DNA from: a bacterium | GTDB lineage: Bacteria > Bacteroidota > Bacteroidia > CAILMK01 > JACPUW01 | Direction of reading: 5' to 3' | Assembly: GCA_016124515.1 (NCBI GenBank) | Contig: WGNN01000006.1 | Coordinates: 5,638-69,637 of the forward strand | Length of the DNA stretch: 64,000 nt | Shown: in pieces, positions 26,673 through 40,941 of the stretch | Layout of the letters: every line of letters starts with the position of its first letter | How positions within the stretch are numbered: position 1 is the first letter of the stretch | The notes under the pieces: generated by a model | Database searches by the model: none | The model's input: the letters and a program-made list of their open reading frames with translations, nothing else | Told to the model about the DNA's origin: nothing | Position numbers and translations under genes: made by a program

Positions 26673-28223
26673 ATGAAAAGGAGTTTTTTATTATTTGTAG
26701 CGGGGGTGTTTGCTCTGTTGTCAACGAACGTCAATGCCCAAAATCTAACCATTAAAGGTACAGATGCCGATTTTACCAAAGGCAACATTGATGTTGAAGT
26801 ACTTTCAGAAATTATTCAACAAAAACAAGATGAATTAAAGAAAAAGGTGTTTAAAGACCTTGTGATTGACAATTTTAAGAAAAATGACTACCTGAACAAC
26901 TTTGCCACATTCTATTATATGTATAATACAATGGAAACGCTTACAGCGGAAAAAAACAAAACCGTTTTAGCCAGAAAAATTATGCAAGAATCTGCAAACT
27001 ACGCACTTATCTACAGTTTTGCAATAGCTATAAACAAGCACCTTGATGATAAAACTTGGAATAGCATGAGCTCAACATCAACAACACTTGATTTAGGAAA
27101 TTTTGATTTTGTGCCAGATTTATCGCCAGAAGACAACAAATCTTACATAAATATACATAAAAAACTAAAAGAAGACACTAATAAAGTTAAATTAAAGAAA
27201 TTCAACTACATGCTCGACCTTGCCTTTGACGTAATTAAAAACAACAAGAAAGCGCAAGAAAAAAAGCTCTTGAAATTTAGTGAAGATGACGAATTTACAT
27301 TTTGGTACAATGCGGACAATTTATACCTTAAACAACTAGACACTGCTAGTGATGGTCATAGAACCAAACTCATGGCACAGCATGCGGCTGCCGATAAATT
27401 TTTAACAGATATCCTAACCCATTTGGGAGAAAACAGTGCTTACCAAGAATTGTACAAGATTATTAGGGCTACTATGCAAAACAAAGGACAGCTGAATGAA
27501 ATAACATTTAAACAGTACAAAGAAATATTGAATTGCTTGCACAGTTTAACACGAACATCATTTTACCTTACCGAAAATGCTTTTGTTTCTAAAATAACCA
27601 AGTTCATTACCGACTACTCTATGGTAGTTAAAGAAGGCAGTGATAGCTCTATAGTTGTTGATGGGGAAGCGCTTATATCAGTGATATTCGAAAAATTCGC
27701 TTCAGACAAAAAAACCAGCAGCACGTCTTCATGGGCCTTTTTTATTAACCCACGCCCCTATTTTAGTATGGGCATCAACAACGGAATTTTCCTATCAAAT
27801 AACACTTTAGGAAACGATAACTCCAACTTGAAAAATATTCAATTTGCATCGGAGAAAATTGGATTGAAAGTGAAATTATTTGATTTCAGGTATTCACATG
27901 CCTTTGGACCCGGCGAAACATTTAAGTACAAGGGAACATATAGAACCTGGTACCGCCCGGTAAAGGAGTTCACCATAAACGACATTTACTATTACGTTTC
28001 CACCTCAGGATTGTTGTACAACTTGGCAAATATCAAAACTGAATCGAGTTTTAACTATGTGCTATTGAATGCCGGTTTTGGAATGAGCTTTTATAATGAC
28101 CTGGCATTGAACATTGGATTATCGGCACCCATAGTAAACGGAGATATAAGCAACAACAATCTTTTCATCAATGTTGGCTTTGATGTGCCAATTCTAAGCT
28201 ATTTAGGCGCTCTAAAAAAATAG
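26673..28223 (+). CDS. Secreted hypothetical protein (N/K-rich), possible C-terminal beta-rich/OM domain
   Basis: Signal peptide 'MKRSFLLFVAGVFALLSTNVNAQ'. AT-rich codon usage. No recognisable catalytic motif. Confidence 0.5.
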   Translation: MKRSFLLFVAGVFALLSTNVNAQNLTIKGTDADFTKGNIDVEVLSEIIQQKQDELKKKVFKDLVIDNFKKNDYLNNFATFYYMYNTMETLTAEKNKTVLARKIMQESANYALIYSFAIAINKHLDDKTWNSMSSTSTTLDLGNFDFVPDLSPEDNKSYINIHKKLKEDTNKVKLKKFNYMLDLAFDVIKNNKKAQEKKLLKFSEDDEFTFWYNADNLYLKQLDTASDGHRTKLMAQHAAADKFLTDILTHLGENSAYQELYKIIRATMQNKGQLNEITFKQYKEILNCLHSLTRTSFYLTENAFVSKITKFITDYSMVVKEGSDSSIVVDGEALISVIFEKFASDKKTSSTSSWAFFINPRPYFSMGINNGIFLSNNTLGNDNSNLKNIQFASEKIGLKVKLFDFRYSHAFGPGETFKYKGTYRTWYRPVKEFTINDIYYYVSTSGLLYNLANIKTESSFNYVLLNAGFGMSFYNDLALNIGLSAPIVNGDISNNNLFINVGFDVPILSYLGALKK

Positions 28224-28245
28224 AGCCAATTTGGTACTATAGCAT

Positions 28246-28289
28246 GTTTCACAAGTCGGGTGCAGAAATTGCCACCTGACTTGTGAAAT
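28246..28289. promoter_or_regulatory. Inverted repeat (11-bp stem, 20-nt loop) between the secreted-protein gene and the helicase gene. Terminator or operator candidate.
   Basis: 'gtttcacaagtc' ... 'gacttgtgaaat' with 11 of 12 positions complementary. No strong T-run follows. Confidence 0.35.
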
Positions 28290-28323
28290 ATTTAACTATG
28301 TTGCGGCTGAAAAATCGGTTAAT

Positions 28324-31300
28324 ATGCCAACGATATATGACAATATCAGAGAGAAACTAGCTGACGAACTAAAAACAGTAGTTGCTCAATCTTACCGAAC
28401 TGACTTTTGTGTAGGTTATTTCAATTTACGCGGTTGGGGAACCGTTGCTGATTTAATTGACAAATTCGGCGGAACAGATGAAAACTGTTGTCGCCTGATT
28501 GTAGGAATGCAGCGTCCATCAGAAGATGTATTGAAAGAAGTTCTTAGCAATCAAAAAGAAGGCAAGGTTGATCAAGCAAGGGTGGCCTTTTTAAAAAAGG
28601 AAATGGCTCGTGAGTTTAGAGACCAATTAACTTACGGAATCCCAACTTCAAAAGATGAAAATGCCTTAAGGCAACTTTCTGAGCAATTGAAAGCAAAAAA
28701 GGTTATAGTTAAGCTCTATTTGGCGCATACACTTCATGCCAAATTGTACCTGGCTTATAGAGATGACAATAAGGCACCAACTATTGGTTATTTAGGAAGC
28801 AGTAACCTAACTATGTCGGGTTTAGAAAAACAAGGGGAGCTAAATGTTGATGTTTTTGAAAAAGATGCCGCTGATAAACTGGCACAATGGTTTCAAGATA
28901 GATGGGATGACAGATTTGCGATAGATATTACAGACGAACTGGCTGAAATTATTGATGAAAGCTGGGCGGGTGAAAAAGTAATACCACCTTACTATATTTA
29001 TCTTAAAATCGCCTGGCACTTGTCACAAGAAGCTCAAACAGGTGAAAAGAATTTTGAGATTCCGGAGGAATTCAACGATTTGTTTTCATTTCAGAAAAAG
29101 GCGGTGGCTTTGGCCGCTCAACATTTGTACAATAGAAATGGGGTAATGATTGGTGATGTTGTTGGTTTGGGCAAAACCATGACTGCATCTGCATTGGCAA
29201 AGTTGTATGAAGAGACTTTTATCATTGAAACATTGATTATTTGCCCTAAAAATTTGGTTGAGATGTGGGAAGACTATCGCCATAAATACCGATTGAGAGC
29301 AAGGGTGTTCTCAATCTCAAAAGTGAATAAAACTTGGCTTGAAAAAGAAAGAAGGTACAGATTGGTAATAATTGATGAGAGCCACAACCTAAGAAACAGG
29401 GATGGTAAACGATATGGTTTAATAAAAGACTACCTTGAGCAAAATGAGAGTAGAGTAATTCTTTTAACCGCAACACCTTATAATAAGTCTTATTTAGACA
29501 TATCAAGCCAGTTAAGATTGTTCATGTCTGAAGATCAAGATCTAGGTTTCGGTCCAGAGCGTTTTCTTGAAGAAATTGGTGGACAAACAGAGTATGTAGC
29601 GGAATATCAAAGCTCGCCCTTTAGCTTGGTGGCATTTGAAAAAAGTGAGCACGCTGACGACTGGCGAGAGTTGCTTAAAATGTTCTTGGTTAGGCGTACT
29701 AGAACCTTTATTAAAGAAAACTATGCTGAGTTTGACGAGAGTAAAGACCAATATTATTTGACCTATGATGGTGATAAGCGTTATTACTTTCCAAAACGTA
29801 TTCCCAGAAAAATTGAGTACGATTTTGACCCTAACGACCCTGATGATGTTTACGCAAAGCTATTCTCAGCCGATATTGTAAGTAGTTTAAATGCACTTCA
29901 ATTACCTAGATATGGTCTGGGAAATTACATAGAAAATAATAAAAGGGGTACTGCTTCAAATCAAGAAGAAGAGATATTGAGCAATCTTACAATGGCCGGG
30001 AGAAGACTTATGGGCTTTTGCCGAACCAATTTGTTCAAAAGACTGGAAAGTTCAGGTTATTCTTTTCTTCTATCACTTTCAAGGCATGTAATGCGCAATT
30101 ACATCTTTATTTATGCCATTGAAAATAAGCTGGACCTACCCATTGGGGTGCAGGAGCTTGAAATGGACGAGTATTTAGAAGAGCATGATGAAGACTTAGC
30201 TGAATTGGGTGTTTTATCCTTAGAAACGGATGAATCTCATTTTCAAAAATCAGCTAAGAACCTTTACAACGTATTGCGTGACCAAGCCAAAAAACATAAG
30301 TGGATCTCTCCTGAATTCTTTAGAAGGGGTTTAAAGAAGCATTTAAAAGAAGATGCTGCCCGATTAATTGAAATAATTGAAATGGCAAAAAATTGGGATG
30401 CTTCGACCGATAAGCAGATTGATGCTCTCGAAAGACTTTGTCAAAATGATTTTAAAAATGAAAAGGTTTTAGTGTTTACCCAATTTGCCGATACGGCCAA
30501 CTATTTATATAACGAATTAAAGCGAAGAGGTGTAACTCATATTGCCCAGGTAACGGGTGCCAATGAAAACCCAACTGTATTTGCTCATAGGTTTAGCCCT
30601 AATAGTAACAAGTACAAGTTCAAAAAAAATGAAAACGAGCTGAGAATCATAATTACAACGGATGTGCTAAGCGAAGGCCAGAACTTACAAGACGCCCATG
30701 TAATTGTAAATTTTGATTTGCCTTGGGCCTTAATAAGATTGATTCAGCGCGCAGGTAGAGTTGATAGAATTGGCCAAAAAGCACCTGAAATTTTCTGCTA
30801 CTCATTCCTCCCTGCCGATGGATTAGAGACAATTATACAGCTTCGCGGAAGGCTTCAACAACGAATCACCGAAAATGCTGAAGTGGTAGGCTCAGACGAA
30901 ATGTTTTTTGATGGTGATCCAGTGAACATTACAGACCTGTACAACGAAAAAGCGGGAATTTTAGACGAAGATGAAACGGACGATGAAGTGGACTTAACTT
31001 CAAAGGCTTACGAAATTTGGAATCAGGCAACTAAGGCCAATCCCAAGCTGGCCAAAGAGATTAAAGCACTACCGAATGTAGTGTACAGCACCAAACCAAA
31101 ACCCGATGCAGCCATCAACAATGGCGTTATAAGCTACCACAAAACTGCTTTTGGCATTGATGTGCTTACTTGGCTTGATGAAAATGGAAATGTACGCTCT
31201 AAGAGCCAAAATAGAATATTAAACATGCTTGAGTGCAGCTTAGAAACCCCCGCACTTAAACGCTTAGAAAACCACCATGAATTGGTAGGAAAGGCGGTGA

Positions 31301-31653
31301 AACTTGCACAGAAAACCCATAAGAACATGGGCGGCCATTTAGGTAAAAAGAGCAGTGCCAGGTACAAGATTTATCACCGCTTAAAAAGGCTGGAGCAAGA
31401 AAATGAAAACACACTTTTTGAAAGCGAAGATTTGCGCAAGGCCATTGACGATATTTACAAGTTTCCATTGCAAGAAAGTACTAAAACAAGACTCAATAGG
31501 CGTATGCGCATGGGGCTTACTGATGATGAGCTTAGCCAACTTGTAATTGGACTTAGAAACGAAGGTAGATTATGCGTGATAAGTAAAAAGGAAAGTGAAA
31601 CCAATTTGGCACCACAGGTAATTTGTTCAATGGGATTAAAAGAAGTGAATTAA
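28324..31653 (+). CDS. PLD(HKD)-family nuclease fused to an SNF2/ResIII-type SF2 helicase
   Basis: N-terminal single HKD motif 'HAKLYLAYRDD...GSSNLT'. Helicase motifs I 'GDVVGLGKTMTA', II 'IIDESHNLRN', III 'LLTATPYNKS', V/VI 'TTDVLSEGQNLQDAHVIVNFDLPW...QRAGRVDRIGQ'. Confidence 0.85.
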   Translation: MPTIYDNIREKLADELKTVVAQSYRTDFCVGYFNLRGWGTVADLIDKFGGTDENCCRLIVGMQRPSEDVLKEVLSNQKEGKVDQARVAFLKKEMAREFRDQLTYGIPTSKDENALRQLSEQLKAKKVIVKLYLAHTLHAKLYLAYRDDNKAPTIGYLGSSNLTMSGLEKQGELNVDVFEKDAADKLAQWFQDRWDDRFAIDITDELAEIIDESWAGEKVIPPYYIYLKIAWHLSQEAQTGEKNFEIPEEFNDLFSFQKKAVALAAQHLYNRNGVMIGDVVGLGKTMTASALAKLYEETFIIETLIICPKNLVEMWEDYRHKYRLRARVFSISKVNKTWLEKERRYRLVIIDESHNLRNRDGKRYGLIKDYLEQNESRVILLTATPYNKSYLDISSQLRLFMSEDQDLGFGPERFLEEIGGQTEYVAEYQSSPFSLVAFEKSEHADDWRELLKMFLVRRTRTFIKENYAEFDESKDQYYLTYDGDKRYYFPKRIPRKIEYDFDPNDPDDVYAKLFSADIVSSLNALQLPRYGLGNYIENNKRGTASNQEEEILSNLTMAGRRLMGFCRTNLFKRLESSGYSFLLSLSRHVMRNYIFIYAIENKLDLPIGVQELEMDEYLEEHDEDLAELGVLSLETDESHFQKSAKNLYNVLRDQAKKHKWISPEFFRRGLKKHLKEDAARLIEIIEMAKNWDASTDKQIDALERLCQNDFKNEKVLVFTQFADTANYLYNELKRRGVTHIAQVTGANENPTVFAHRFSPNSNKYKFKKNENELRIIITTDVLSEGQNLQDAHVIVNFDLPWALIRLIQRAGRVDRIGQKAPEIFCYSFLPADGLETIIQLRGRLQQRITENAEVVGSDEMFFDGDPVNITDLYNEKAGILDEDETDDEVDLTSKAYEIWNQATKANPKLAKEIKALPNVVYSTKPKPDAAINNGVISYHKTAFGIDVLTWLDENGNVRSKSQNRILNMLECSLETPALKRLENHHELVGKAVKLAQKTHKNMGGHLGKKSSARYKIYHRLKRLEQENENTLFESEDLRKAIDDIYKFPLQESTKTRLNRRMRMGLTDDELSQLVIGLRNEGRLCVISKKESETNLAPQVICSMGLKEVN

Positions 31654-31654
31654 T

Positions 31655-34600
31655 ATGCAAAGTATAAGCAAGCAACAATTCAAAGCTTGGGTTAAAGCAT
31701 TTGATTTTTCTGAGCTTTTTAATCAATTAGGTTGGGACTATGTAGATGATGAAATTTACAAAAAGGTGGGTGATGAAACATTTACTTTTAACCATGTAGC
31801 CAATAAAGAAGGTTTTGCCATTTTAGTAGTTGAGCCTGATAAAAATGGCCAAATTCCAGCCGCCGCAGTAAGGAAAAGAGTGCATACCGAAATAAGCAAA
31901 CTTCACCATGAACACTTGCTCATTTTTATTGATAAAAACAAATCTGCACAGCAATGGGAACTCATTTTAAGAGAACCCAATAAACCCATTAGAACTGTTG
32001 GCCATAAATGGAATAAACAGCAAGACCCCGAATTACTATACCAAAAGCTAGCAGGAGCTTTTTTTAGCTTTGACGAAGAAGGCAACCTTACCATTATTGA
32101 TGTAGTAAACCGCCTTAAAGAAAACTTTGGCGCAAATGCCGAAAAGGTTACCAAAAAATTCTATGCAGAGTTTAAAACCCAACACAAGGCCTTTTTAGAC
32201 TTTATATCAGGCATTGACGACCACATTAAAAAAGGCGAAAACAAAAACAAGCAATGGTATGCTTCGCTCATGCTCAACCGCTTAATGTTTTGCTACTTTA
32301 TACAGAAAAAAGGTTTTTTAGATGGCGATAGAAATTACCTGAGCAACAAACTTGAAGCTTGCAAAAACCTTGGTGCAAATGATCAATTCTATAGCTTTTA
32401 TCGCAGCTTTTTATTAGAGTTATTTCATGATGGTTTGGGTAAACCCGAAGCCAATAGAAATCATAAAATTCCCGTTGATTTAGGCAAAATACCTTACCTA
32501 AACGGTGGTTTGTTTGATGTGCATCAGCTTGAAAAACAGTTTGAAGCCATACAAATTGCTGATGATGCTTTTGAAAAGATATTTGAGTTTTTTGACAAAT
32601 GGGAATGGCATTTAGATACCCGTGAAGATGCAACGGGCAAAACCATAAACCCCGATGTAATAGGCTACATTTTTGAAAAGTACATTAACGAGCGTGCCGC
32701 TATGGGTGCCTATTACACCAAAGAAGATATTACCGAATACATAAGCAAAAACACCATACTGCCTTTTCTTTTTGACGAAACACAAAGGCAATACCCCAAA
32801 GCTTTTAAAACCAATGCCCATATATGGCAATACCTGCAGGCAAGTGGTAGCGACTACATTTACGATGCGGTAAAAAAAGGTGTGCCGCAAGAAGGGGAAC
32901 TTTACAGTGATTTACCTGACGAAATACAGGAAGGTTTTAAACCCGAGCTTGAAGATAAAGTAGTGGCCGAAACCACTGAACCACACCTTTGGGAAATAAG
33001 AAGACCATGGAACCAAGCAGCACCTGAAGAAATTGCCCTGCCCACCGAAACCTACCGCGAGCTTATTGAGCGCCGTAAACGCTATGCCGATATAGCGCAA
33101 AAGATACATGCAGGTGAAATAGAAAAGATAAATGACTTTATAACATACAACCTAAACATAAGACAGTTTACCCAAGATTATTTAGAAACTACCAATGACG
33201 CCGATTTTATTAGGCATTTCTACAAAGCCATAAACAAAGTAACCATCTTAGACCCTACCTGTGGTTCAGGTGCTTTTTTGTTTGCCGCACTTAATATATT
33301 AGAGCCGCTCTACAATACGTGCTTAGACCGCATGGAAGAATTTGTGACTGAAAATCCCGGCAAGTACAAATTCTTTGAAGATACCCTGAATAAGGTAAAC
33401 AGCCCCGAACACCCCAGCCGAACCTATTTTATTTACAAGAGCATCATACTCCATAACCTGTTTGGGGTTGACATAATGAAAGAAGCGGTTGAAATTGCCA
33501 AGCTGCGTTTGTTCTTAAAATTGGTAAGCACAGTTGAAGTTGACTACAAAAAACGAAACCTGGGCCTTGAACCTTTACCTGACATTGACTTTAACATACG
33601 CCACGGCAATACCTTGGTGGGTTTTGCCACCGAGCAAGAATTGCTAAATACCATACAAAAACACGATGCCCTTTTTGCTCAAGACAAATTGGATGAGTTT
33701 AAAGACGAGTGTGATATAGTAGCCAAGGCTTACACTCAGTTTAGCAATTGCCAATTAGACGATAACGTTCCCATTGATGACAAAGCAAAAGCCAAAAACG
33801 ACTTAAACGCTAAACTAGAAACGCTTAACTCAAAACTCAACAAGTACTTAGCCACCAACTACGGTATAGATGCCGATAAAAAACCAAAAGACTACGGCGC
33901 TTGGCTTGAGAGCCACATGCCATTCCATTGGTTTGCCGAGTTTTATCAAATAATAGCAGGCAATGGCGGTTTTGATGTGATTATTGGGAATCCACCATAC
34001 ATAGAATATAGCAAAGTCAGAAAACAATATACCATCGTTAACAAGGATGAAGCAAGTTGCGGTAACCTATTTGGAATCGTAACGACAAAGCTTGATGTTC
34101 TCAAGAATGAACATGGGAGAACAGGGATGATTGTGCCGATTAGTCTAATATGCACGAAGCGCATGTCAAGTGTGTTAGAAGAATTAAAGAACAACAATTT
34201 GTGGCTCAGTCACTATGCAGAAAGACCCAGTAAGTTATTTACAGGAGCCGAAGTGTTGTTGACTATTTATTTAACGGGTGAAACAAATCTGAAGAAATCA
34301 CAAACGTATTCAACTGGATTCACCAAATGGAACTCAAACTTTCGAACATTTTTGTTTGATTCTACGACCTACCAGCCAAACGATTCAATATTCAGAAATT
34401 ATGTATCCACTAAAAGCTCAAGTCAAGTTGATTTAAACATAATTTACAACTTGTTAGAAAGGCAAGAAGTAATTGAAAAAGATATTGTGTCTCAATCAAA
34501 ATTTGAGATTTTCTATAGAATCGGTGGTGGAAGATATTGGAAAATATTTACTGATTTTTCCCCGAGATTCATATTAAATGGTGTTGAAGGAAAGTCCAGT

Positions 34601-35041
34601 CGTGAGAATCGAATTTTCTTTAGAACTGATAGAAATCGCTTTCTAACAATCTCAGCACTTAGTAGCAGCCTATTTTATTATTATTTTATTCACACGACAA
34701 ATTGTCGCGATTTGAACCCAAACGACCTGCGGTCGTTTCCATTACTAGAGAATAAAATAGATAAACATATAGCCACTCAATTGTCTAAACTGGGTGACGA
34801 TTTGATGCGTGATTATCAAAGGACTAGTGAATTCAAGAAAAAAACATCTAGTAAAACCGGTGAAATAGAGTATCAAGAATTCTATCCAAGAAAATCAAAA
34901 GATATCATCGACCAAATCGATACAGTATTAGCGCAGCATTATGGTTTTACCGAAGCAGAATTAGATTTTATCATCAACTACGATTACAAATACCGCATGG
35001 GCGGGGCTTTAAGTGAAGGTGGAGATGGAAAAGAAGAATAA
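31655..35041 (+). CDS. Large gamma-class N6-adenine DNA methyltransferase (Eco57I/PglX/DrmMI-like), 1128 aa
   Basis: Motif X 'GAYYTKEDITEYI', motif I 'LDPTCGSGAFLFAALN', motif IV 'IIGNPPYI'. About 330-aa N-terminal and ~350-aa C-terminal (TRD-like) extensions. Its start is 1 bp after the helicase stop. Confidence 0.85.
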   Translation: MQSISKQQFKAWVKAFDFSELFNQLGWDYVDDEIYKKVGDETFTFNHVANKEGFAILVVEPDKNGQIPAAAVRKRVHTEISKLHHEHLLIFIDKNKSAQQWELILREPNKPIRTVGHKWNKQQDPELLYQKLAGAFFSFDEEGNLTIIDVVNRLKENFGANAEKVTKKFYAEFKTQHKAFLDFISGIDDHIKKGENKNKQWYASLMLNRLMFCYFIQKKGFLDGDRNYLSNKLEACKNLGANDQFYSFYRSFLLELFHDGLGKPEANRNHKIPVDLGKIPYLNGGLFDVHQLEKQFEAIQIADDAFEKIFEFFDKWEWHLDTREDATGKTINPDVIGYIFEKYINERAAMGAYYTKEDITEYISKNTILPFLFDETQRQYPKAFKTNAHIWQYLQASGSDYIYDAVKKGVPQEGELYSDLPDEIQEGFKPELEDKVVAETTEPHLWEIRRPWNQAAPEEIALPTETYRELIERRKRYADIAQKIHAGEIEKINDFITYNLNIRQFTQDYLETTNDADFIRHFYKAINKVTILDPTCGSGAFLFAALNILEPLYNTCLDRMEEFVTENPGKYKFFEDTLNKVNSPEHPSRTYFIYKSIILHNLFGVDIMKEAVEIAKLRLFLKLVSTVEVDYKKRNLGLEPLPDIDFNIRHGNTLVGFATEQELLNTIQKHDALFAQDKLDEFKDECDIVAKAYTQFSNCQLDDNVPIDDKAKAKNDLNAKLETLNSKLNKYLATNYGIDADKKPKDYGAWLESHMPFHWFAEFYQIIAGNGGFDVIIGNPPYIEYSKVRKQYTIVNKDEASCGNLFGIVTTKLDVLKNEHGRTGMIVPISLICTKRMSSVLEELKNNNLWLSHYAERPSKLFTGAEVLLTIYLTGETNLKKSQTYSTGFTKWNSNFRTFLFDSTTYQPNDSIFRNYVSTKSSSQVDLNIIYNLLERQEVIEKDIVSQSKFEIFYRIGGGRYWKIFTDFSPRFILNGVEGKSSRENRIFFRTDRNRFLTISALSSSLFYYYFIHTTNCRDLNPNDLRSFPLLENKIDKHIATQLSKLGDDLMRDYQRTSEFKKKTSSKTGEIEYQEFYPRKSKDIIDQIDTVLAQHYGFTEAELDFIINYDYKYRMGGALSEGGDGKEE

Positions 35042-36080
35042 AAAGGAATTTCTACTCACGCGTAAGCATGTGCAAATTGTTTCGTGGGTTGGTTTGTTAC
35101 TATTAATCTTTTCATTGTTTCTGCCAGCCCTATTAAGTCAAAATACAGGTTGGTGGGATTTTAGTACTACCGGAGAAATTGGCGATACCATTGGCGGTAT
35201 TCTTACACCTGCTATTGCAGTAATTGCCGCAGGTTTAACCTTTCTCGCATTTTACGTTCAGTTTGAAGCCAATCAGCAACAAAAAAATGACATTGCTCGC
35301 GAACGTTTAGAAAGGAAGTTTTATCAGTTATTGGAATTGCATAAAAAGAATGTAGATGAATTACAACTTAATGAAAAAATAAAAGGGCGACACTACTTTC
35401 CTCATTTATTCAATGAGTTTAAAGCCAGCTACTATTTATGTGAAAAATTGATGAAGGAAACGAATCAAGTAGATTCTTTAGATGACGAGATGCTTATTGA
35501 TGTAGCCTATAGATTTATGTTTTTGGGTACTAATTCATTAACTCCTGAAAACATTCCTGTTCTTTTCTCAAGGAGTTCATTTCCCTTTATTCTAAAAGCA
35601 CATAATTTAGCAACTGATGTACTACATCGAAGCTTTGATGGCCACATGAAACAGAATCCACACTTTCCGTTACAGGGATATATTTTTCAAGATAATAATC
35701 CTAAGCGTGGTGAACCATATCTCATTTATCATAAACCCTTTAGCGGGCACTCACATCAATTAGGCCATTATTTTCGAAACTTGTTTCACATGGTGAAACT
35801 TATTGATCAAAATACATGGCTTTCTGATGAAGAGAAAAAAGACTTTACAAGAATAATTCGTGCTCAACTTAGCAATGAAGAGCAGTTGATGCTTTATTAT
35901 AATGCTCAAAGCAATTACGGTAAAGCATGGTTTGAAAATGGCTATTTCAAAAAGTATAAGCTTGTGCACAATATGCCTGTTCAAATGGCTGAGATTGGAC
36001 TGAACCCGAAAAGTAAATTCATAAGTAAGTATGGTGCTTTACCAAATGGCGAAGAATACTTTGAATGGGACGAGCGATGA
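35013..36080 (+). CDS. Membrane protein, possibly of the 'putative phage abortive infection (AbiC-like)' family
   Basis: Two N-terminal TM helices flanking 'GEIGDTIGGILTPAIAVIAAGLTFLAFY', then a soluble ~280-aa domain. The Abi assignment is by recalled motif resemblance only. Confidence 0.4.
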   Translation: MKVEMEKKNKKEFLLTRKHVQIVSWVGLLLLIFSLFLPALLSQNTGWWDFSTTGEIGDTIGGILTPAIAVIAAGLTFLAFYVQFEANQQQKNDIARERLERKFYQLLELHKKNVDELQLNEKIKGRHYFPHLFNEFKASYYLCEKLMKETNQVDSLDDEMLIDVAYRFMFLGTNSLTPENIPVLFSRSSFPFILKAHNLATDVLHRSFDGHMKQNPHFPLQGYIFQDNNPKRGEPYLIYHKPFSGHSHQLGHYFRNLFHMVKLIDQNTWLSDEEKKDFTRIIRAQLSNEEQLMLYYNAQSNYGKAWFENGYFKKYKLVHNMPVQMAEIGLNPKSKFISKYGALPNGEEYFEWDER

Positions 36081-36628
36081 CTAATAAACTACTTGACAAT
36101 TTCAGAAGAAAAGTTGCCTTTAAAACATCTTTATCAGATGCTTTTAGAAGGGGTCATGTTTACAATACTGATTTTACAGAATCACAAAAGAATAAGGCAA
36201 AGGCAAGGCTAATTCCTATTCTAAAAGAAAAACTACCTTCAATTATTGAATGTTTAGATATTGAAAATGGTTACACGGAAGAAAATCTTTGCAATCAAAT
36301 AGAAAAGCTTGCAAACGATATTACCAAGCTATTGCCAAATGATTTGAACAATAGCCGTTTCAGAATAGGAACAGCCCAAAAGCTCATCAACGTATATTGG
36401 AAGTTTCTTTGGCTTTTTGAGCTTACCGAAAAGGAGCCATTGCATTGCCCGATAGATTCGATAATTCTTGGTACCTTAGATGAACCATTTAAAAGTTTAA
36501 GATGGACACAACTTGATTCAATAGGCCAGTACAAAGAAATTATTGAAGAAATACGTATAAAGGCAGAAGCTAAAGACCAATCAATTGCCGTTTGGGAGTT
36601 GGAAGTATATGACCAAAAAGTGAATTAA
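36077..36628 (+). CDS. Hypothetical protein (183 aa), translationally coupled (ATGA overlap) to the upstream Abi-like gene
   Basis: ATG at 36077 overlaps TGA at 36078-36080. No recognisable motif. Confidence 0.5.
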   Translation: MTNKLLDNFRRKVAFKTSLSDAFRRGHVYNTDFTESQKNKAKARLIPILKEKLPSIIECLDIENGYTEENLCNQIEKLANDITKLLPNDLNNSRFRIGTAQKLINVYWKFLWLFELTEKEPLHCPIDSIILGTLDEPFKSLRWTQLDSIGQYKEIIEEIRIKAEAKDQSIAVWELEVYDQKVN

Positions 36629-36637
36629 ATAATCAGT

Positions 36638-37102
36638 ATGACATTTGCCAACGAATCAGACTTTGAAGCCTATCTAAGAGGTGAAATTATTAAACCGATA
36701 ATCACCAGTCATAAGGAGTATTACTTAATGGAGAGCAAAAAGGCAGTTGATATACTTATTTGTAAAAATGGTTCTAATCCTTCATTGTACTTCATTGAAG
36801 TAAAGTATCACAAAAAACTACATGGAAGATTAGGTATAGGCCAAAGAAAAGGTGTCGGTTTTCAGCCCGAGATACTAAGCAGTAAACCGACATATTTCCA
36901 GAATAACCTTAGATGGGTAATGGGCTCTGAAAGTCATAATGGCTTTTTGTGGCTTCATAATGACGAAATTACCGAGTATCTTAATGCCGGAATGGTGGGA
37001 GGCAAATACAACGGGGTGCGGAAAAAAATCTTCAATGAAAAACCACTTTTAAACACCGCCCAATTGGAGAGCAATTTAAGAAGTTGGTTAGGTGTTGAAT
37101 AA
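36638..37102 (+). CDS. Small PD-(D/E)xK-like (restriction-endonuclease-fold) protein candidate
   Basis: 'AVDILICKNG-x11-YFIEVKY' fits the hhhD...(D/E)xK core, with an upstream acidic 'FEAYLRGE'. Confidence 0.45.
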   Translation: MTFANESDFEAYLRGEIIKPIITSHKEYYLMESKKAVDILICKNGSNPSLYFIEVKYHKKLHGRLGIGQRKGVGFQPEILSSKPTYFQNNLRWVMGSESHNGFLWLHNDEITEYLNAGMVGGKYNGVRKKIFNEKPLLNTAQLESNLRSWLGVE

Positions 37103-37140
37103 ATGTGAAATAAATTAATAGGATCAATAAAAGATGATTT

Positions 37141-37506
37141 ATGAAAATTGGAATTCAAAATTTTTTAGCCTTCATAATTCTCAACTTTGGTATGTTGATG
37201 ATACCTTTCATCGTGTTGCAGCTGCATGCTAATGATGTTCAACTTCACGAATTTTCAATAGCACTGTCGTTTTACCTTGTAGCACTTGCGTTTACTTCAA
37301 GTACGGTTATTGGGTTCATTTCTCTACTAGTTCTCTCTATTTTCACCCTTTTTGACTATGCTTTTATTGATCGAACAATACCGGTAACAAAATTGGATTA
37401 TCATGTTGCCTTATACATCGTGGCCTTTATTGCTACAATATTGATATCGTATGAAAAATACGTGAGACAAGGCCAACCAATAATTGAAATAAGGCAATTA
37501 TCATGA
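37141..37506 (+). CDS. Small integral membrane protein (3-4 TM)
   Basis: Hydrophobic throughout. ATGA overlap with the next gene. Confidence 0.4.
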   Translation: MKIGIQNFLAFIILNFGMLMIPFIVLQLHANDVQLHEFSIALSFYLVALAFTSSTVIGFISLLVLSIFTLFDYAFIDRTIPVTKLDYHVALYIVAFIATILISYEKYVRQGQPIIEIRQLS

Positions 37507-38324
37507 CGCTAATCACAATTACTATTTGCTCGCTCGCTTTGTTACCTTTGGTGTGGCAATTTGGTGCAAACATTAACGCGGACTTAAAATTTAAACGGGT
37601 TCTTAAAGCGAATAAGGAAGAAATCCTTGAGTTTATGAGTGCCATTGGCTTTCGAAGTGACCCACCTAACCCTTTTCGAGTAAACTATGCATTATATAAT
37701 TTGCTGTACATAGAGTTTGATAAGATTATAAAGGAAAAGCTGACAGGTGGTGCCAAGGCCATTATTCTGGAAAGCTTTTCACATAAAAACATTCCTCAAA
37801 CTTTAAGATTCTTGAACCGAATGCTCCCTGTAATTGGTATTGCGAGAATTGAATTTGAAGAAGCCGCACTCAAATCAACATTAGAGCAGGTACAATACAA
37901 AAAAGAGAGTGAGCAAAATGAAGAAATCAAGAGACTGAATAAAATGCTTGAAAAAGCAAATATTAAACAAAAGACAATTGAGAAGCTCGGTGAAGAAGTG
38001 AAGACTGCTTCGCAGTCAGAACAAGGTTTAGGAGTTTCAAAAGACTCTGCGATTGCAACCCAAGAATATACCATGAAGGTTAAAGAAAGAACAAGCCGCG
38101 TTCAAAGTCTTAATGATCAATTTGACAATGAGTATAGCAAATTACAATCGCTCTTTGATCGTATTGAAAACAAATTGACTGAAGACGAAAATTATTCTTT
38201 TTTCAAGAAAATGAAGGAAGTCTCTGAACGTTTAAAATCCTTAGAAGAAAATCAAAGGTATATTAATGAAGAGACCAAGAGAACTACTGAAGAGTTTCAG
38301 GAAGGTCTTGAAAAAAATGACTAG
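37503..38324 (+). CDS. Membrane-anchored coiled-coil protein
   Basis: N-terminal TM 'ITICSLALLPLVW', then a K/E-rich heptad-like region. Confidence 0.45.
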   Translation: MTLITITICSLALLPLVWQFGANINADLKFKRVLKANKEEILEFMSAIGFRSDPPNPFRVNYALYNLLYIEFDKIIKEKLTGGAKAIILESFSHKNIPQTLRFLNRMLPVIGIARIEFEEAALKSTLEQVQYKKESEQNEEIKRLNKMLEKANIKQKTIEKLGEEVKTASQSEQGLGVSKDSAIATQEYTMKVKERTSRVQSLNDQFDNEYSKLQSLFDRIENKLTEDENYSFFKKMKEVSERLKSLEENQRYINEETKRTTEEFQEGLEKND

Positions 38325-38494
38325 TAGTCGTCGATATTGTCTTGTATATGAGTGCAAGGTGATTAACCAAATTAAGCAGGCCATGACTGATTAACTTGCC
38401 TTTTACCTTAAGATGTTTTGATTGAAGTGAATAGCCGACTGAGTTTTAAGAAACTGACCAATTGGAAGCTTAAATTGCAATAGAATTAGCACAA

Positions 38495-38941
38495 ATGGAA
38501 TACCTAGGAAACAAAGAACTACTGAAACTAAAGAAAGTTTGTTTCTTATGCAGCAGAAAAATAGCTCCCAGTGCCATACTCAAGTGTTACGATTGGGCTA
38601 CGGATATGCGCAAAAAGCAGCAGTGCGTAATAATGGGTGCACACAGCCCTATAGAAAAAGATGTTTTCGACATTTTGCTCAAGGGTTCACAACCCCTTAT
38701 CTTGGTCTTGGCTAGGGGCATGAAAAGTGTTTGGAGCTCAGAAGTGCTTGATCAGATAAAAGCCGGAAGACTGTTGGTTATTGCCCCATTTGACAAAAAT
38801 GTAAAGCGTATAAGTAAGGAAACAAGTAAAAAAAGGAATGCGCTTCTTGTTTCGCTATCCGCCGAATTGGTTATCGGTTACCTTTCTACAAACAGCGATT
38901 TAAAAACACTCATTTCGGAAAGCCCATATATCATATTATAA
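38495..38941 (+). CDS. Standalone DprA/Smf-like Rossmann (SLOG-superfamily) domain protein
   Basis: 'VCFLCSRKIA' aligns with DprA 'VAIVGSRxAS'. 'CVIMGAHSPIEKDVFDILLKGSQPLILVLARGM' aligns with 'VVSGLARGIDAAAHRGAL..G.TIAVLGCG'. 'RNALLVSLSAELVI' aligns with 'RNRIISGLS..VVVVE'. Confidence 0.5.
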   Translation: MEYLGNKELLKLKKVCFLCSRKIAPSAILKCYDWATDMRKKQQCVIMGAHSPIEKDVFDILLKGSQPLILVLARGMKSVWSSEVLDQIKAGRLLVIAPFDKNVKRISKETSKKRNALLVSLSAELVIGYLSTNSDLKTLISESPYIIL

Positions 38942-38950
38942 CTAATCGAT

Positions 38951-39442
38951 ATGGACATTAGATTTAAAAATATAACCTTTACAAGCTTTTCACACCACAA
39001 ATCCACTCCTCATAATCCCCTCAATATGCACCTGACAAAATACCTCCCATTCATTAGCTTAAGCATGTTTTTGCTTCTCTCCACCAGCTGTGCCACTTCC
39101 TATCGTTTTAACCAAATACGGAGGTATGATGCAACCGGAAACTTACAAGACAGCCTTGAAAGGGACTTTGTTGTAAAAATAAATCCGCGCAAAAACTTGG
39201 TGGTTTTCCGGCTCGGGCAACAAAACATTGAATACTTGGCCAATGAAATCAGCTATAAATACCCGCCATTCACCTTTCGAAAGAAAAAATCCAATCGGCA
39301 GGGAGTGGCCATATATTTTGATAATAAGGACTACCTGTACATCAATTTCAATGGACCAAAAAAAACGGCCAACTCAGGTTATATTACCTTGCACGATTCA
39401 ACTGATATTTTGGGTTTTGGTTTGGCATTTGAAAAAGAATGA
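38951..39442 (+). CDS. Hypothetical secreted/lipoprotein
   Basis: Hydrophobic segment 'LPFISLSMFLLLSTSC' (lipobox-like 'STSC'). Confidence 0.4.
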   Translation: MDIRFKNITFTSFSHHKSTPHNPLNMHLTKYLPFISLSMFLLLSTSCATSYRFNQIRRYDATGNLQDSLERDFVVKINPRKNLVVFRLGQQNIEYLANEISYKYPPFTFRKKKSNRQGVAIYFDNKDYLYINFNGPKKTANSGYITLHDSTDILGFGLAFEKE

Positions 39443-39527
39443 TTTTTACGAAAAGCCAAATTTCGATTTAATTCTTCACCATAAATTCTTTAAGAAAAAA
39501 AATGCCTTAAGTTCGTCTTAAATAAGT

Positions 39528-40088
39528 ATGAAAAGGTATATGGAACCCGAAAACCACCACCGCAACGTTCGCCAATCGATGGTTGGTGAACTGCTTCAGT
39601 CAAAAAGAAAATCTGTTGATCACCTTACCGAATCAATCGCCAATTACAATGAAATTCTGGAATTTGTAAGGACTCCGGCGCTACTTCACCACATGAATGG
39701 CCTTATCGCATGGCTCATCAGATTTGTGGCTATGATACTTGGGTTGGCGTCAATACTTACATCTTTGCTTTTATTTTTCTCTAAAGCATGGCCCGACTCG
39801 TGGTGGCAAACCCTGCTTGCCAACGAAACCTTGGTGGGAAACGAACCTGTTGCAGAAGTCAAACTTGAAATGATGTTGGTATTCGTCTTTTTTGGTCTTA
39901 TTACCATGATTATTGGCTTATTACTCATCACTTTATCATGGCTAATTGGCTCAGTAAGAAACAGGTCAAAAACTATAAGGGATTTATCAATGGTTATTAC
40001 AGAAATGTTGTCGCACGAAAAAGACTTTTTAGAAAGCGAAAAAAACGCCTACTTAAACCTGAGCAAGGAATTAGACAATTGGACTTGA
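39528..40088 (+). CDS. Hypothetical membrane protein (3 TM)
   Basis: Three hydrophobic helices. No known motif. Confidence 0.4.
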   Translation: MKRYMEPENHHRNVRQSMVGELLQSKRKSVDHLTESIANYNEILEFVRTPALLHHMNGLIAWLIRFVAMILGLASILTSLLLFFSKAWPDSWWQTLLANETLVGNEPVAEVKLEMMLVFVFFGLITMIIGLLLITLSWLIGSVRNRSKTIRDLSMVITEMLSHEKDFLESEKNAYLNLSKELDNWT

Positions 40089-40158
40089 CTGTCATGAATT
40101 TAAGTCTAAGGATGAACTGTGTGTTTTGGGAAGGCCCCAAAATAAAATTTGACTCCCC

Positions 40159-40941
40159 ATGAACAAATTCCTACTACACCTGGCGTATGATGGAAGCGGT
40201 TTTCGTGGCTGGCAGCGACAAAAGGTGGTTGCTTCTGTGCAACAGACACTTGAAGAAAGCCTTTGCCGCGTGCTGGGCGAAACCGTAACCCTGCTGGGTT
40301 GTGGACGCACCGATGCGCAAGTGCATGCCTCGCAGTATTTTGCGCAGTTTACCTGCCGTGGCGCGGTTCCTGAAAAACTGGCCTTTATCCTGAATAAAAA
40401 CCTGCCTGAGAGCATCAGAATTTATGATGTGATAGCGGTTCCTGCCGGTTTCAATGTACTGCATCAAGCCACCTGCCGGCATTACCATTATTATTTCCAC
40501 ACGTTGCAAAATCCGTTTATACAAGCCTATAGCAGCTATTATACCTTTCCTACCTTTCAGCTTGAAAAGGCAGGGGAAGTGCTGGCACTATACAAGCAAT
40601 TCAACGACTTTAAAGCCTATTGCCTGACACCCGAAAAACACAACCACACGCTGGTAACGCTGGAAAATGCCACCATACAACACAACCCTCAAAACGGTTT
40701 GTATTGCATCCACTTTGCGGCCAAACGCTTTTTGAAAGGCATGGTAAGGGCTTTGGTTTATGATGTTTTGCAAGTGGCAAGCGGCCAAGTGGATTTGGAT
40801 GTTATTCTGCAAAAACTATCGGACAAAAACCGCACGCCCCACCTGCAATTGGCACATCCGCAGGGTTTGTATCTCAGCCAAATTGAATACCGTATTGAGG
40901 TTCCACCCCCACTCGTCGAGCCTATACGCATGCTGCTTTAG
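40159..40941 (+). CDS. truA: tRNA pseudouridine(38-40) synthase
   Basis: 'LHLAYDGSGFRGWQRQ' and the catalytic 'GCGRTDAQVHA' motif. Confidence 0.9.
   Translation: MNKFLLHLAYDGSGFRGWQRQKVVASVQQTLEESLCRVLGETVTLLGCGRTDAQVHASQYFAQFTCRGAVPEKLAFILNKNLPESIRIYDVIAVPAGFNVLHQATCRHYHYYFHTLQNPFIQAYSSYYTFPTFQLEKAGEVLALYKQFNDFKAYCLTPEKHNHTLVTLENATIQHNPQNGLYCIHFAAKRFLKGMVRALVYDVLQVASGQVDLDVILQKLSDKNRTPHLQLAHPQGLYLSQIEYRIEVPPPLVEPIRMLL

Follow-up and report, generated by a model that had tools for sequence, protein, structure and literature searches.

Introduction

The abortive infection (Abi) proteins AbiC and AbiP are single-gene systems that a 2026 review places in one structural group, AbiC having two transmembrane (TM) helices and no assignable fold, and AbiP a single TM helix; the only mechanism known is the reduced production of phage capsid protein described for lactococcal AbiC (PMC13064643). 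Defence genes are also found embedded in the operons of Hma, BREX, DISARM and Type I restriction-modification (R-M) systems, 96.7% of them in the same orientation (bioRxiv 10.1101/2024.01.29.577857), and an insertion hotspot has been noted in hmaABC (PMC11232893). A further kind of single-gene defence is provided by Dag proteins, unannotated members of the HhH superfamily that excise 7-deazaguanine from phage DNA; their structures have been compared with those of AGOG, SsOgg and MjOgg, and they require a Lys, an Asp and a Trp, which in Dag1 are K118, D184 and W188 (bioRxiv 10.1101/2025.10.29.685425). Here, we analyse a 64,000-nucleotide stretch of the genome of an uncultured member of the Bacteroidota (assembly GCA_016124515.1, contig WGNN01000006.1, positions 5,638 to 69,637; hereafter the window), in which three consecutive open reading frames (ORFs), ORF1 to ORF3, had been proposed to constitute one new abortive-infection or defence module. 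We conclude that the three genes are probably independent units within a composite defence operon, and that, in the simplest reading, this operon consists of a four-gene core into which different guest genes were inserted at the junctions.

Co-occurrence of the three gene families

All three ORFs were found on the + strand where the original prediction had placed them, and the description of their surroundings as an AT-rich defence island next to an R-M-like gene pair was accurate: the GC content is 0.35-0.39 across approximately 27-40 kb of the window and 0.42-0.50 in the flanks. ORF1 extends from an ATG at 35025, the start used in the public annotation (351 aa, P0195), or from a GTG at 35013 (355 aa), to 36080. 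The stop codon of the preceding methyltransferase (MTase) gene, read from the sequence, is the TAA at 35039-35041, so that the overlap is 17 bp with the ATG start, and the 29 bp initially described require the GTG. The ORF1 TGA (36078-36080) and the ORF2 ATG (36077-36079) share the tetranucleotide ATGA at 36077-36080, as had been noted. From this ATG, ORF2 (36077-36628, in a frame open from 36065) encodes 183 aa, the length originally given, and is identical to P0040; its TAA ends at 36628, and after the 9-bp gap also reported before, ORF3 (36638-37102, 154 aa) starts with an ATG at 36638. Because each of the three has homologues at very strong E-values, all are considered real genes. The tight packing, however, is a feature of the entire array and is not peculiar to the trio: ten + strand genes between 28324 and 40088 all point the same way, and the distances between them range from -29 to +170 bp.

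To assess whether the three families occur together elsewhere, about 150 loci were fetched and their ORFs were searched by hmmsearch with AbiC, ORF2 and ORF3 profiles. None of the 31 AbiC-like loci (3 cellular and 28 from viral contigs) contained a relative of ORF2 or ORF3, and their neighbours were unrelated; neither AbiC nor ORF3 was detected in any of the approximately 80 metagenome loci of the ORF2 family; and among about 40 ORF3 loci, ORF2 was found in none and a distant AbiC-like ORF in one, 3.3 kb away. The window is the sole locus of the approximately 150 in which any two of the three families are adjacent. In particular, the closest ORF2 homologue (65% identity; locus L001) has no AbiC or ORF3 neighbour, and the same holds for a 31%-identical homologue whose island carries an integrase together with DUF1016, SLFN-AlbA, an RVT_1 protein and HsdM (L002/3). 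The original prediction had made its case depend on conservation of the trio as a unit, and recurrent co-occurrence in unrelated genomes, as expected of a conserved three-gene system, was not observed; on the basis of these profile searches, a single conserved trio was rejected. Judged by genomic evidence, the 31 AbiC-like loci show no obligatory partner, as is the case for the AbiC group.

The neighbours of ORF2 are highly heterogeneous, with no cluster present in more than four loci, and consist largely of assorted housekeeping genes, with MTases, restriction enzymes, DRTs and UvrD-like helicases making up a smaller share. A recurrent partner of ORF2 was sought by scanning 150 neighbours against Pfam and PADLOC, and no family occurred in more than three loci.

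The one AbiC-like ORF found near ORF3 (L031, 13759-15258, Thalassotalea loyana; 499 aa, E = 1.2e-17) lies downstream of the ORF3 homologue in a cassette-like array, and is the only other near-meeting of two of the families.

A probable four-gene core and its presumed guests

The two closest ORF3 homologues on long contigs are found at the loci L008/L009 and L129/L130. In L008/L009, the gene order is HKD-SNF2 (1122 aa), MTase (1090 aa), ORF3 homologue and DprA-like gene, and in L129/L130 it is HKD-SNF2, KilA-N, MTase, ORF3 homologue and DprA-like gene. AbiC, ORF2, ORF4 and ORF5 are absent from both, with the DprA-like gene directly following ORF3. The corresponding core genes of the window are HKD-SNF2 (28324-31653, +, 1109 aa), MTase (31655-35041, +, 1128 aa), ORF3 and ORF6 (38495-38941, +, 148 aa). 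Compared with the proteins of L008 and L129, identity is 56% for the helicase, 48.5% for the MTase, 55-56% for ORF3 and 49-53% for the DprA-like protein; thus, the four core genes diverged in step. The same order at comparable divergence in independent loci provides moderate support, from two lineages, for a four-gene core. The presumed guests have a lower GC content (ORF1, 0.353; ORF2, 0.335; ORF4, 0.342; ORF5, 0.356) than the core genes (0.37-0.40).

The first core protein combines an HKD (PLD) nuclease domain with an SNF2 helicase, matching Pfam PLDc_2, SNF2-rel_dom and Helicase_C as well as the PADLOC model C3a139 'HKD+Snf2' (9.3e-55), with additional DrmD- and HmaA-like matches, and its translation contains the HxK..D..GSxN motif. 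The second is an Eco57I/MmeI-type N6-adenine DNA methyltransferase, Type IIG-like (Pfam Eco57I, 4.7e-20, and MmeI_Mtase; PADLOC REase_MTase_IIG PDLC03628, 4.5e-286). ORF6 is a Rossmann/SLOG-type, DprA-like protein with a below-cut-off match to Pfam DNA_processg_A (1.4e-6) and a match to PADLOC PsyrA (5.2e-9). We propose that these three genes and ORF3 make up the backbone, an R-M-like cluster in which the HKD-SNF2 helicase/nuclease and the Eco57I-type adenine MTase would distinguish self by adenine methylation. The guests of the window would be ORF1 and ORF2 at the MTase/ORF3 junction, and ORF4 and ORF5 at the ORF3/DprA-like junction.

A different guest occupies another junction in L129, where a KilA-N gene (4754-5578, 274 aa) separates HKD-SNF2 from the MTase.

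Several observations weigh against an assembly of independent units on such a core. The core rests on effectively two lineages, L008 and L129 being closely related to each other (91% in SNF2), and the guests are presumed, on the simplest reading, to have been inserted in the window rather than lost from L008 and L129. The sample of AbiC-like loci is small and limited, with only three cellular loci, the other 28 being viral contigs. Most of the ORF2 loci hold distant relatives (28-44% identity), leaving room for a lineage-specific partnership of AbiC and ORF2, and ORF1 and ORF2 could be translationally coupled through their ATGA overlap. Such a partnership, in which ORF2 modulates or neutralises ORF1, or the two genes are mobilised jointly and translationally coupled, would agree with this start/stop overlap, with the similar, lowered GC content of both genes and with their being missing together from L008 and L129. 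We nevertheless consider it improbable, given that the 65%-identical ORF2 homologue has no AbiC neighbour, that none of about 80 ORF2 loci and none of 31 AbiC loci shows the pairing, and that AbiC and AbiP each work as a single-gene system (PMC13064643). Much less probable still is a new three-component system composed of a membrane sensor or effector, an unknown adaptor and a nuclease. The packing of the trio (the ATGA overlap and the 9-bp gap), its position in a defence island and the defence-type domains of two of its three proteins first pointed to such a system, but the families co-occur nowhere else among the loci sampled, ORF3 is syntenic with other genes and the ten-gene array is equally tightly packed throughout. 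The co-occurrence tests thus largely refute a single system, and we regard a composite defence operon that houses three mutually independent units as the probable arrangement.

ORF1, an AbiC-like membrane protein

The resemblance of ORF1 to AbiC that had been suggested was confirmed by a match of residues 246-323 to Pfam PF16872 (putAbiC), which scored 72.7 bits, the curated gathering score being 22 (E = 3.5e-20); ORF1 also matches PADLOC AbiC (6e-9), PADLOC AbiP (3e-7) and phrog_8999 (1.2e-25). The predicted N-terminal TM hairpin and its motif are likewise present: hydrophobic segments cover residues ~14-42 and ~55-82 (Kyte-Doolittle mean >1.6 in 19-residue windows), providing the N-terminal membrane anchor expected of the AbiC/AbiP group, and the peptide GEIGDTIGGILTP corresponds to the family hallmark TGxIGDTIGGIxGP. 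Across 34 homologues, G50, G53, D54, T55, G57, G58 and P62 vary little or not at all. All 377 homologues of ORF1 that we identified contain PF16872, the closest sharing 41% identity, and those with a named source are mostly Bacteroidota. Judged by its sequence, ORF1 is an ordinary, if divergent, representative of an already known family of single-gene Abi systems, and it would function as a stand-alone, membrane-anchored abortive-infection protein of the AbiC/AbiP type.

ORF2, a member of a large unannotated family

ORF2 has no match in Pfam (E<=0.1), NCBIfam, PADLOC or PHROGs, and 80 members of its family searched against Pfam at E<=1 returned only noise. A word-indexed search recovered 6 relatives only, and an exhaustive profile search recovered 1,835 clusters (50% identity) at E<=1e-3, 327 of them at E<=1e-30; the members are mostly free-standing proteins of 170-190 aa. 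The statement that this protein has no recognisable motif does not hold at the family level: among 80 aligned sequences, G98, Q101, K102, K109, W112, P125, D127, Y152 and E174 are invariant, and N105, P121, H123, C124, W143, T144 and W173 are near-invariant.

The structural model of ORF2 is all-alpha and confident (pLDDT 93.3), with D127 capping the following helix. The invariant residues would form a succession of a hairpin, a helix with a Lys, a Pro-rich loop and a helix-capping Asp, the pattern that defines HhH-GPD enzymes. We compared an 80-sequence ORF2 profile by HHalign with MjOgg and with a 3-sequence Ogg2 alignment, using an MjOgg sequence checked against PDB entries 3fhf (100% identical) and 3knt. 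A greedy co-linear path of 159 columns, with a probability of ~1%, placed K102 opposite K129 of MjOgg and D127 opposite D147. We take K129 and D147 to be the catalytic residues of MjOgg; 3fhf and 3knt differ from each other at K129 (K to Q). Given this pattern, an HhH-GPD-type glycosylase fold and function is, in our view, somewhat favoured for ORF2. The putative catalytic pair would be K102 (or K109) and D127. By analogy with the Dag enzymes, ORF2 may be a stand-alone HhH-GPD-type DNA glycosylase acting on base-modified phage DNA, and could thereby cover phages that evade the methylation-based backbone through modified DNA, much as BrxU complements BREX.

Searches at the sequence level gave no such connection. 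ORF2 does not belong to the Pfam HhH-GPD, AGOG or OGG families by profile membership, and a PDB profile search with the ORF2 family yielded noise and no glycosylase; on these results, and on the HHalign probability of ~1%, a sequence-level link between ORF2 and Ogg2 was rejected.

Two fusions were noted in the family, one to a response-regulator receiver domain (P0169, 508 aa) and one to DUF7225 (P0128), and the extensions of eight other long members contained no Pfam domain. Domain fusions were set aside as a clue to function, most longer relatives being without a Pfam domain. The possibility that ORF2 or ORF3 is a phage or plasmid gene was also rejected: tblastn with ORF2 matched none of 50,697 phage records and none of 72,556 plasmid records, and among 2.9 million viral contigs there was 1 match for ORF2 and 0 for ORF3.

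ORF3, a small PD-(D/E)xK protein

No family was assigned to ORF3 by Pfam, NCBIfam, PADLOC or PHROGs. Across the family, Pfam matches are sub-threshold only, and all of them, DUF234, SduA_C, NOV_C and HSDR_N_2, are PD-(D/E)xK families. A detached C-terminal nuclease of HmaA, or another nuclease known to PADLOC, was considered and rejected, there being no PADLOC match at E<=0.1, and neither ORF2 nor ORF3 matched the HEC and PDC candidate models of PADLOC-DB v2.

The nuclease core suspected in ORF3 was recovered at the level of both fold and motif. Its confident AlphaFold model (pLDDT 90.9) has the restriction-endonuclease-like alpha-beta-beta-beta-alpha-beta core, and carries the signature of an E in helix 1, a D on strand 2 and (D/E)xK on strand 3. 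In an alignment of 31 homologues (41-56% identity), E6, E10, R14, K34, D38, E54 and K56 are invariant, and a GFQPE element is present. Since all of the catalytic residues are invariant, we infer that ORF3 is an active nuclease; it would be a metal-dependent endonuclease carried as the 3'-terminal gene of defence operons of the methylase/helicase kind.

We surveyed 28 genome loci and several metagenome loci of ORF3. In nearly all of them, the homologue closes a run of genes on one strand, zero to a few bases behind the gene before it. The preceding genes include BREX-1 (PglX, 1491 bits, with PglZ and BrxL; L035), Hma (HmaC, 1013 bits, with a DUF1156 methylase; L042) and Tiamat TmtA (772 bits; L029). 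Type III Mod/Res genes precede it in three loci, accompanied by PDC-S06 (L038), by an HATPase_c_3 protein (L043) or by no large ATPase (L041); HATPase_c_3 proteins are also found in L024 and L026. Further contexts are SNF2, IIG-like MTase and SMC-type ATPases (L018, L026 and L044), and an MTase/PDDEXK_4/SH3/PLD set (L010). Defence operons of this kind account for about 15 of approximately 34 distinct ORF3 lineages. Overall, ORF3 is promiscuous, seems to have no promoter of its own and is enriched as the tail gene of operons that encode methylase/helicase defence systems.

The MTase/ORF3 spacers of L008 (6885-6971) and L129 (8880-8981) each encode a duplicated N-terminal fragment of the DprA-like protein whose gene lies downstream of ORF3 (30-34 aa, 66-68% identity, E = 1.6e-7 to 1.5e-10; 61-70 bp at 84-87% at the DNA level), which looks like the footprint of a past ORF3 insertion with target duplication. 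The window carries no such duplicated DprA-like fragment. Flanking duplications around ORF3 were rejected as a general feature, having been found only in L008/9, L129/130, the Vibrio loci described below and one Planctomycetota locus.

Alternative readings of ORF2 and ORF3

Not all places where ORF3 is found are defence operons, and these weigh against a role as a working core component. In Rhodobacteraceae and other Alphaproteobacteria, ORF3 sits inside the urease operon between ureC and ureE (L027, 9495-9959; L034, 10001-10468), and in genomes of the Erythrobacter type it occupies the recN/ligA junction (L012, 7001-7468; L019 and L037) with overlapping stop and start codons; ORF3 may therefore be a hitch-hiker and not a working part of the core. 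The Vibrio copies (L006, 1677-2147; L028, 10001-10471) are flanked by 120-128-bp direct repeats that are 80-93% identical, and lie within arrays of short genes on the same strand; ORF3 is therefore, in Vibrio, the cassette of an integron, the repeats being attC/VCR-like sites. A small nuclease gene that is selfish or a hitch-hiker, similar to a homing endonuclease or a cassette, that inserts at gene junctions and uses the transcription of host operons, would fit these contexts, the constant same-strand, tightly spaced position behind many unrelated operons, and the duplicated DprA-like fragment in L008 and L129, which is what insertion with target duplication predicts. We regard this explanation as unlikely: flanking duplications occur in few lineages only, the divergence of ORF3 in step with three core genes implies long co-residence, the fact that about 15 of some 34 lineages follow immediately after operons of the R-M, BREX, Hma or Tiamat type suggests function-linked enrichment, and none of the 2.9 million viral contigs carries ORF3. 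The urease gene order is ureD-ureB-ureC-ORF3-ureE-F-G, and both this operon and the recN/ligA junction are unusual locations for a nuclease of defence.

The glycosylase assignment of ORF2 faces structural and profile results that count against it. A Foldseek comparison with the PDB returned nothing significant for ORF2, with AGOG at rank 3 (E = 4.4) and MBD4 at rank 11, and the HHalign probability for MjOgg and the Ogg2 alignment was ~1%. An appreciable, though smaller, chance therefore has to be given to ORF2 being an all-alpha regulator, an antitoxin-like protein or a nucleic-acid binder, its likeness to Ogg2 being a chance match between helical bundles. Consistent with this are the lack of Pfam hits in 80 members, the common housekeeping neighbours and the fusion of some members to a response-regulator receiver domain. 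The invariant HhH-GPD-like pattern G98..K102..P121..P125.D127 argues in the opposite direction, as does the co-linear HHalign path that pairs K102 with K129 and D127 with D147, and we retain the glycosylase as the somewhat better reading of ORF2.

The most far-reaching interpretation is a joint one, that the locus contains two undescribed defence families. The ORF2 family, of at least 1,835 clusters at 50% identity and missed by annotation from sequence, would comprise antiviral HhH-GPD-type glycosylases separate from Dag, and the ORF3 family would comprise promoterless operon-tail nucleases that join methylation-based systems (BREX, Hma, Tiamat, Type III R-M and HKD-SNF2/MTase) as their 3'-terminal gene and supply or back up DNA cleavage. 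Taken as a whole, this is a tentative proposal that we consider rather doubtful. If it were true, the ORF3 tail nucleases would bear on how phage DNA is destroyed by systems lacking a nuclease, such as BREX.

Transcription and the remaining genes of the island

The three ORFs are probably co-transcribed, and we propose that the array is transcribed from upstream of 28324. Promoter-like and terminator-like matches were no more frequent than expected by chance anywhere in 27900-40300. Furthermore, no tRNA genes, Rfam families or convincing flanking repeats mark the boundaries of the island.

The window contains far fewer copies of TAnnTTTG, the -7 promoter motif of Bacteroidota, than expected (28 occurrences versus 75.9 +/- 9.4 from shuffles), with no + strand match between 32065 and 37543. 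An inverted repeat with 19-nt arms, a 10-nt loop and 89% complementarity (28244-28291) is located in the 100-bp gap that separates an upstream gene of 516 aa from the start of HKD-SNF2. This repeat may either terminate transcription of that upstream gene or act as a hairpin that regulates the defence operon.

ORF4 and ORF5 (37141-38324, +), the second presumed guest pair, overlap by 4 bp and lie between ORF3 and the DprA-like gene. ORF4 (121 aa) is a multi-TM protein with several hydrophobic segments and ORF5 (273 aa) is coiled-coil-like; neither has a significant family match in Pfam, NCBIfam, PADLOC or PHROGs, ORF5 giving a weak match to DruC (6.7e-5). Beyond ORF6, ORF7 and ORF8 (38951-40088, +) encode, respectively, a 163-aa protein whose N-terminus is a hydrophobic leader like that of lipoproteins and a 186-aa protein with TM segments. 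They have no family assignment and end the low-GC island ahead of truA (40159).

Comparison with known defence systems

To conclude, the ORF1 family, the embedding architecture and the kinds of fold predicted for ORF2 and ORF3 are already known. To these, the present work adds the identities of the genes, the modelled folds and conserved residues of their products, the non-co-occurrence of the trio and the synteny of the four-gene core; the biochemical activities of ORF1, ORF2 and ORF3 are predicted throughout. Dissolving the presumed three-gene system keeps a false new Abi module off the record, and the locus provides a clean example of defence genes embedded in a defence operon, with differing guests at differing junctions. 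The ORF2 and ORF3 families are candidates unannotated in the four libraries searched (Pfam, NCBIfam, PADLOC-DB v2 and PHROGs): a large family of ~180-aa proteins, maybe glycosylases directed against modified phage DNA, and a rare small tail nuclease. Confirmation of either would add one more antiviral family and would not change any concept.

Similar to AbiC, ORF1 has a large soluble domain behind two N-terminal TM helices, and as in the AbiC/AbiP group, its family is without a conserved partner and is also present on (pro)phage contigs. Unlike AbiC, which is encoded on a lactococcal plasmid, ORF1 comes from an uncultured bacterium, has no database match above 41% identity and is embedded in an R-M-like operon.

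ORF2 resembles Dag proteins in being small, unannotated, single-domain and all-alpha, and in its AT-rich defence locus. Its best structural neighbours, Ogg2 and AGOG, although not significant in Foldseek, are reference structures in the Dag structural tree, and K102/K109, D127 and W173-E174 recall K118, D184 and W188 of Dag1, the comparison with Dag being by description only. Unlike in Ogg2, the loop from the hairpin-helix to the Asp is 7-10 residues longer in ORF2, and no sequence-level link connects ORF2 to glycosylase families. The family is nearly absent from phages and plasmids, with many members among housekeeping genes.

For ORF3, the appropriate comparison is with RecU, Hjc resolvases, SIRV D212, I-Ssp6803I and the nuclease domains of the Type IIG enzymes DrdV and BpuSI. 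It has the same core fold as these small PD-(D/E)xK nucleases and an intact E...D...ExK signature, and, like the dimeric resolvases, consists of ~150 aa with no extra DNA-binding domain. ORF3 differs from all of them in its own conserved residues (GFQPE, W93, K123 and N125), in belonging to no sequence family and in its genomic habit as the last gene of defence operons.

As in Hma, class 1 DISARM and the PADLOC 'HKD+Snf2' (C3a139) set, the backbone combines an SNF2 helicase carrying a fused nuclease with a large Eco57I-type adenine MTase. Unlike Hma and class 1 DISARM, the island encodes no HmaC/DUF499 ATPase, DrmA or DrmB among its 10 proteins, DrmD-, HmaA- and DrmMI-like domains alone being matched, and the backbone nuclease is an N-terminal HKD domain, whereas that of Halomonas HmaA is a C-terminal PD-(D/E)xK domain (PMC11232893). 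In common with the published embedded defence genes, the guests lie between the genes of a helicase/methylase system, share its orientation and differ from junction to junction among related loci, here within a host operon distinct from canonical Hma, BREX or DISARM.

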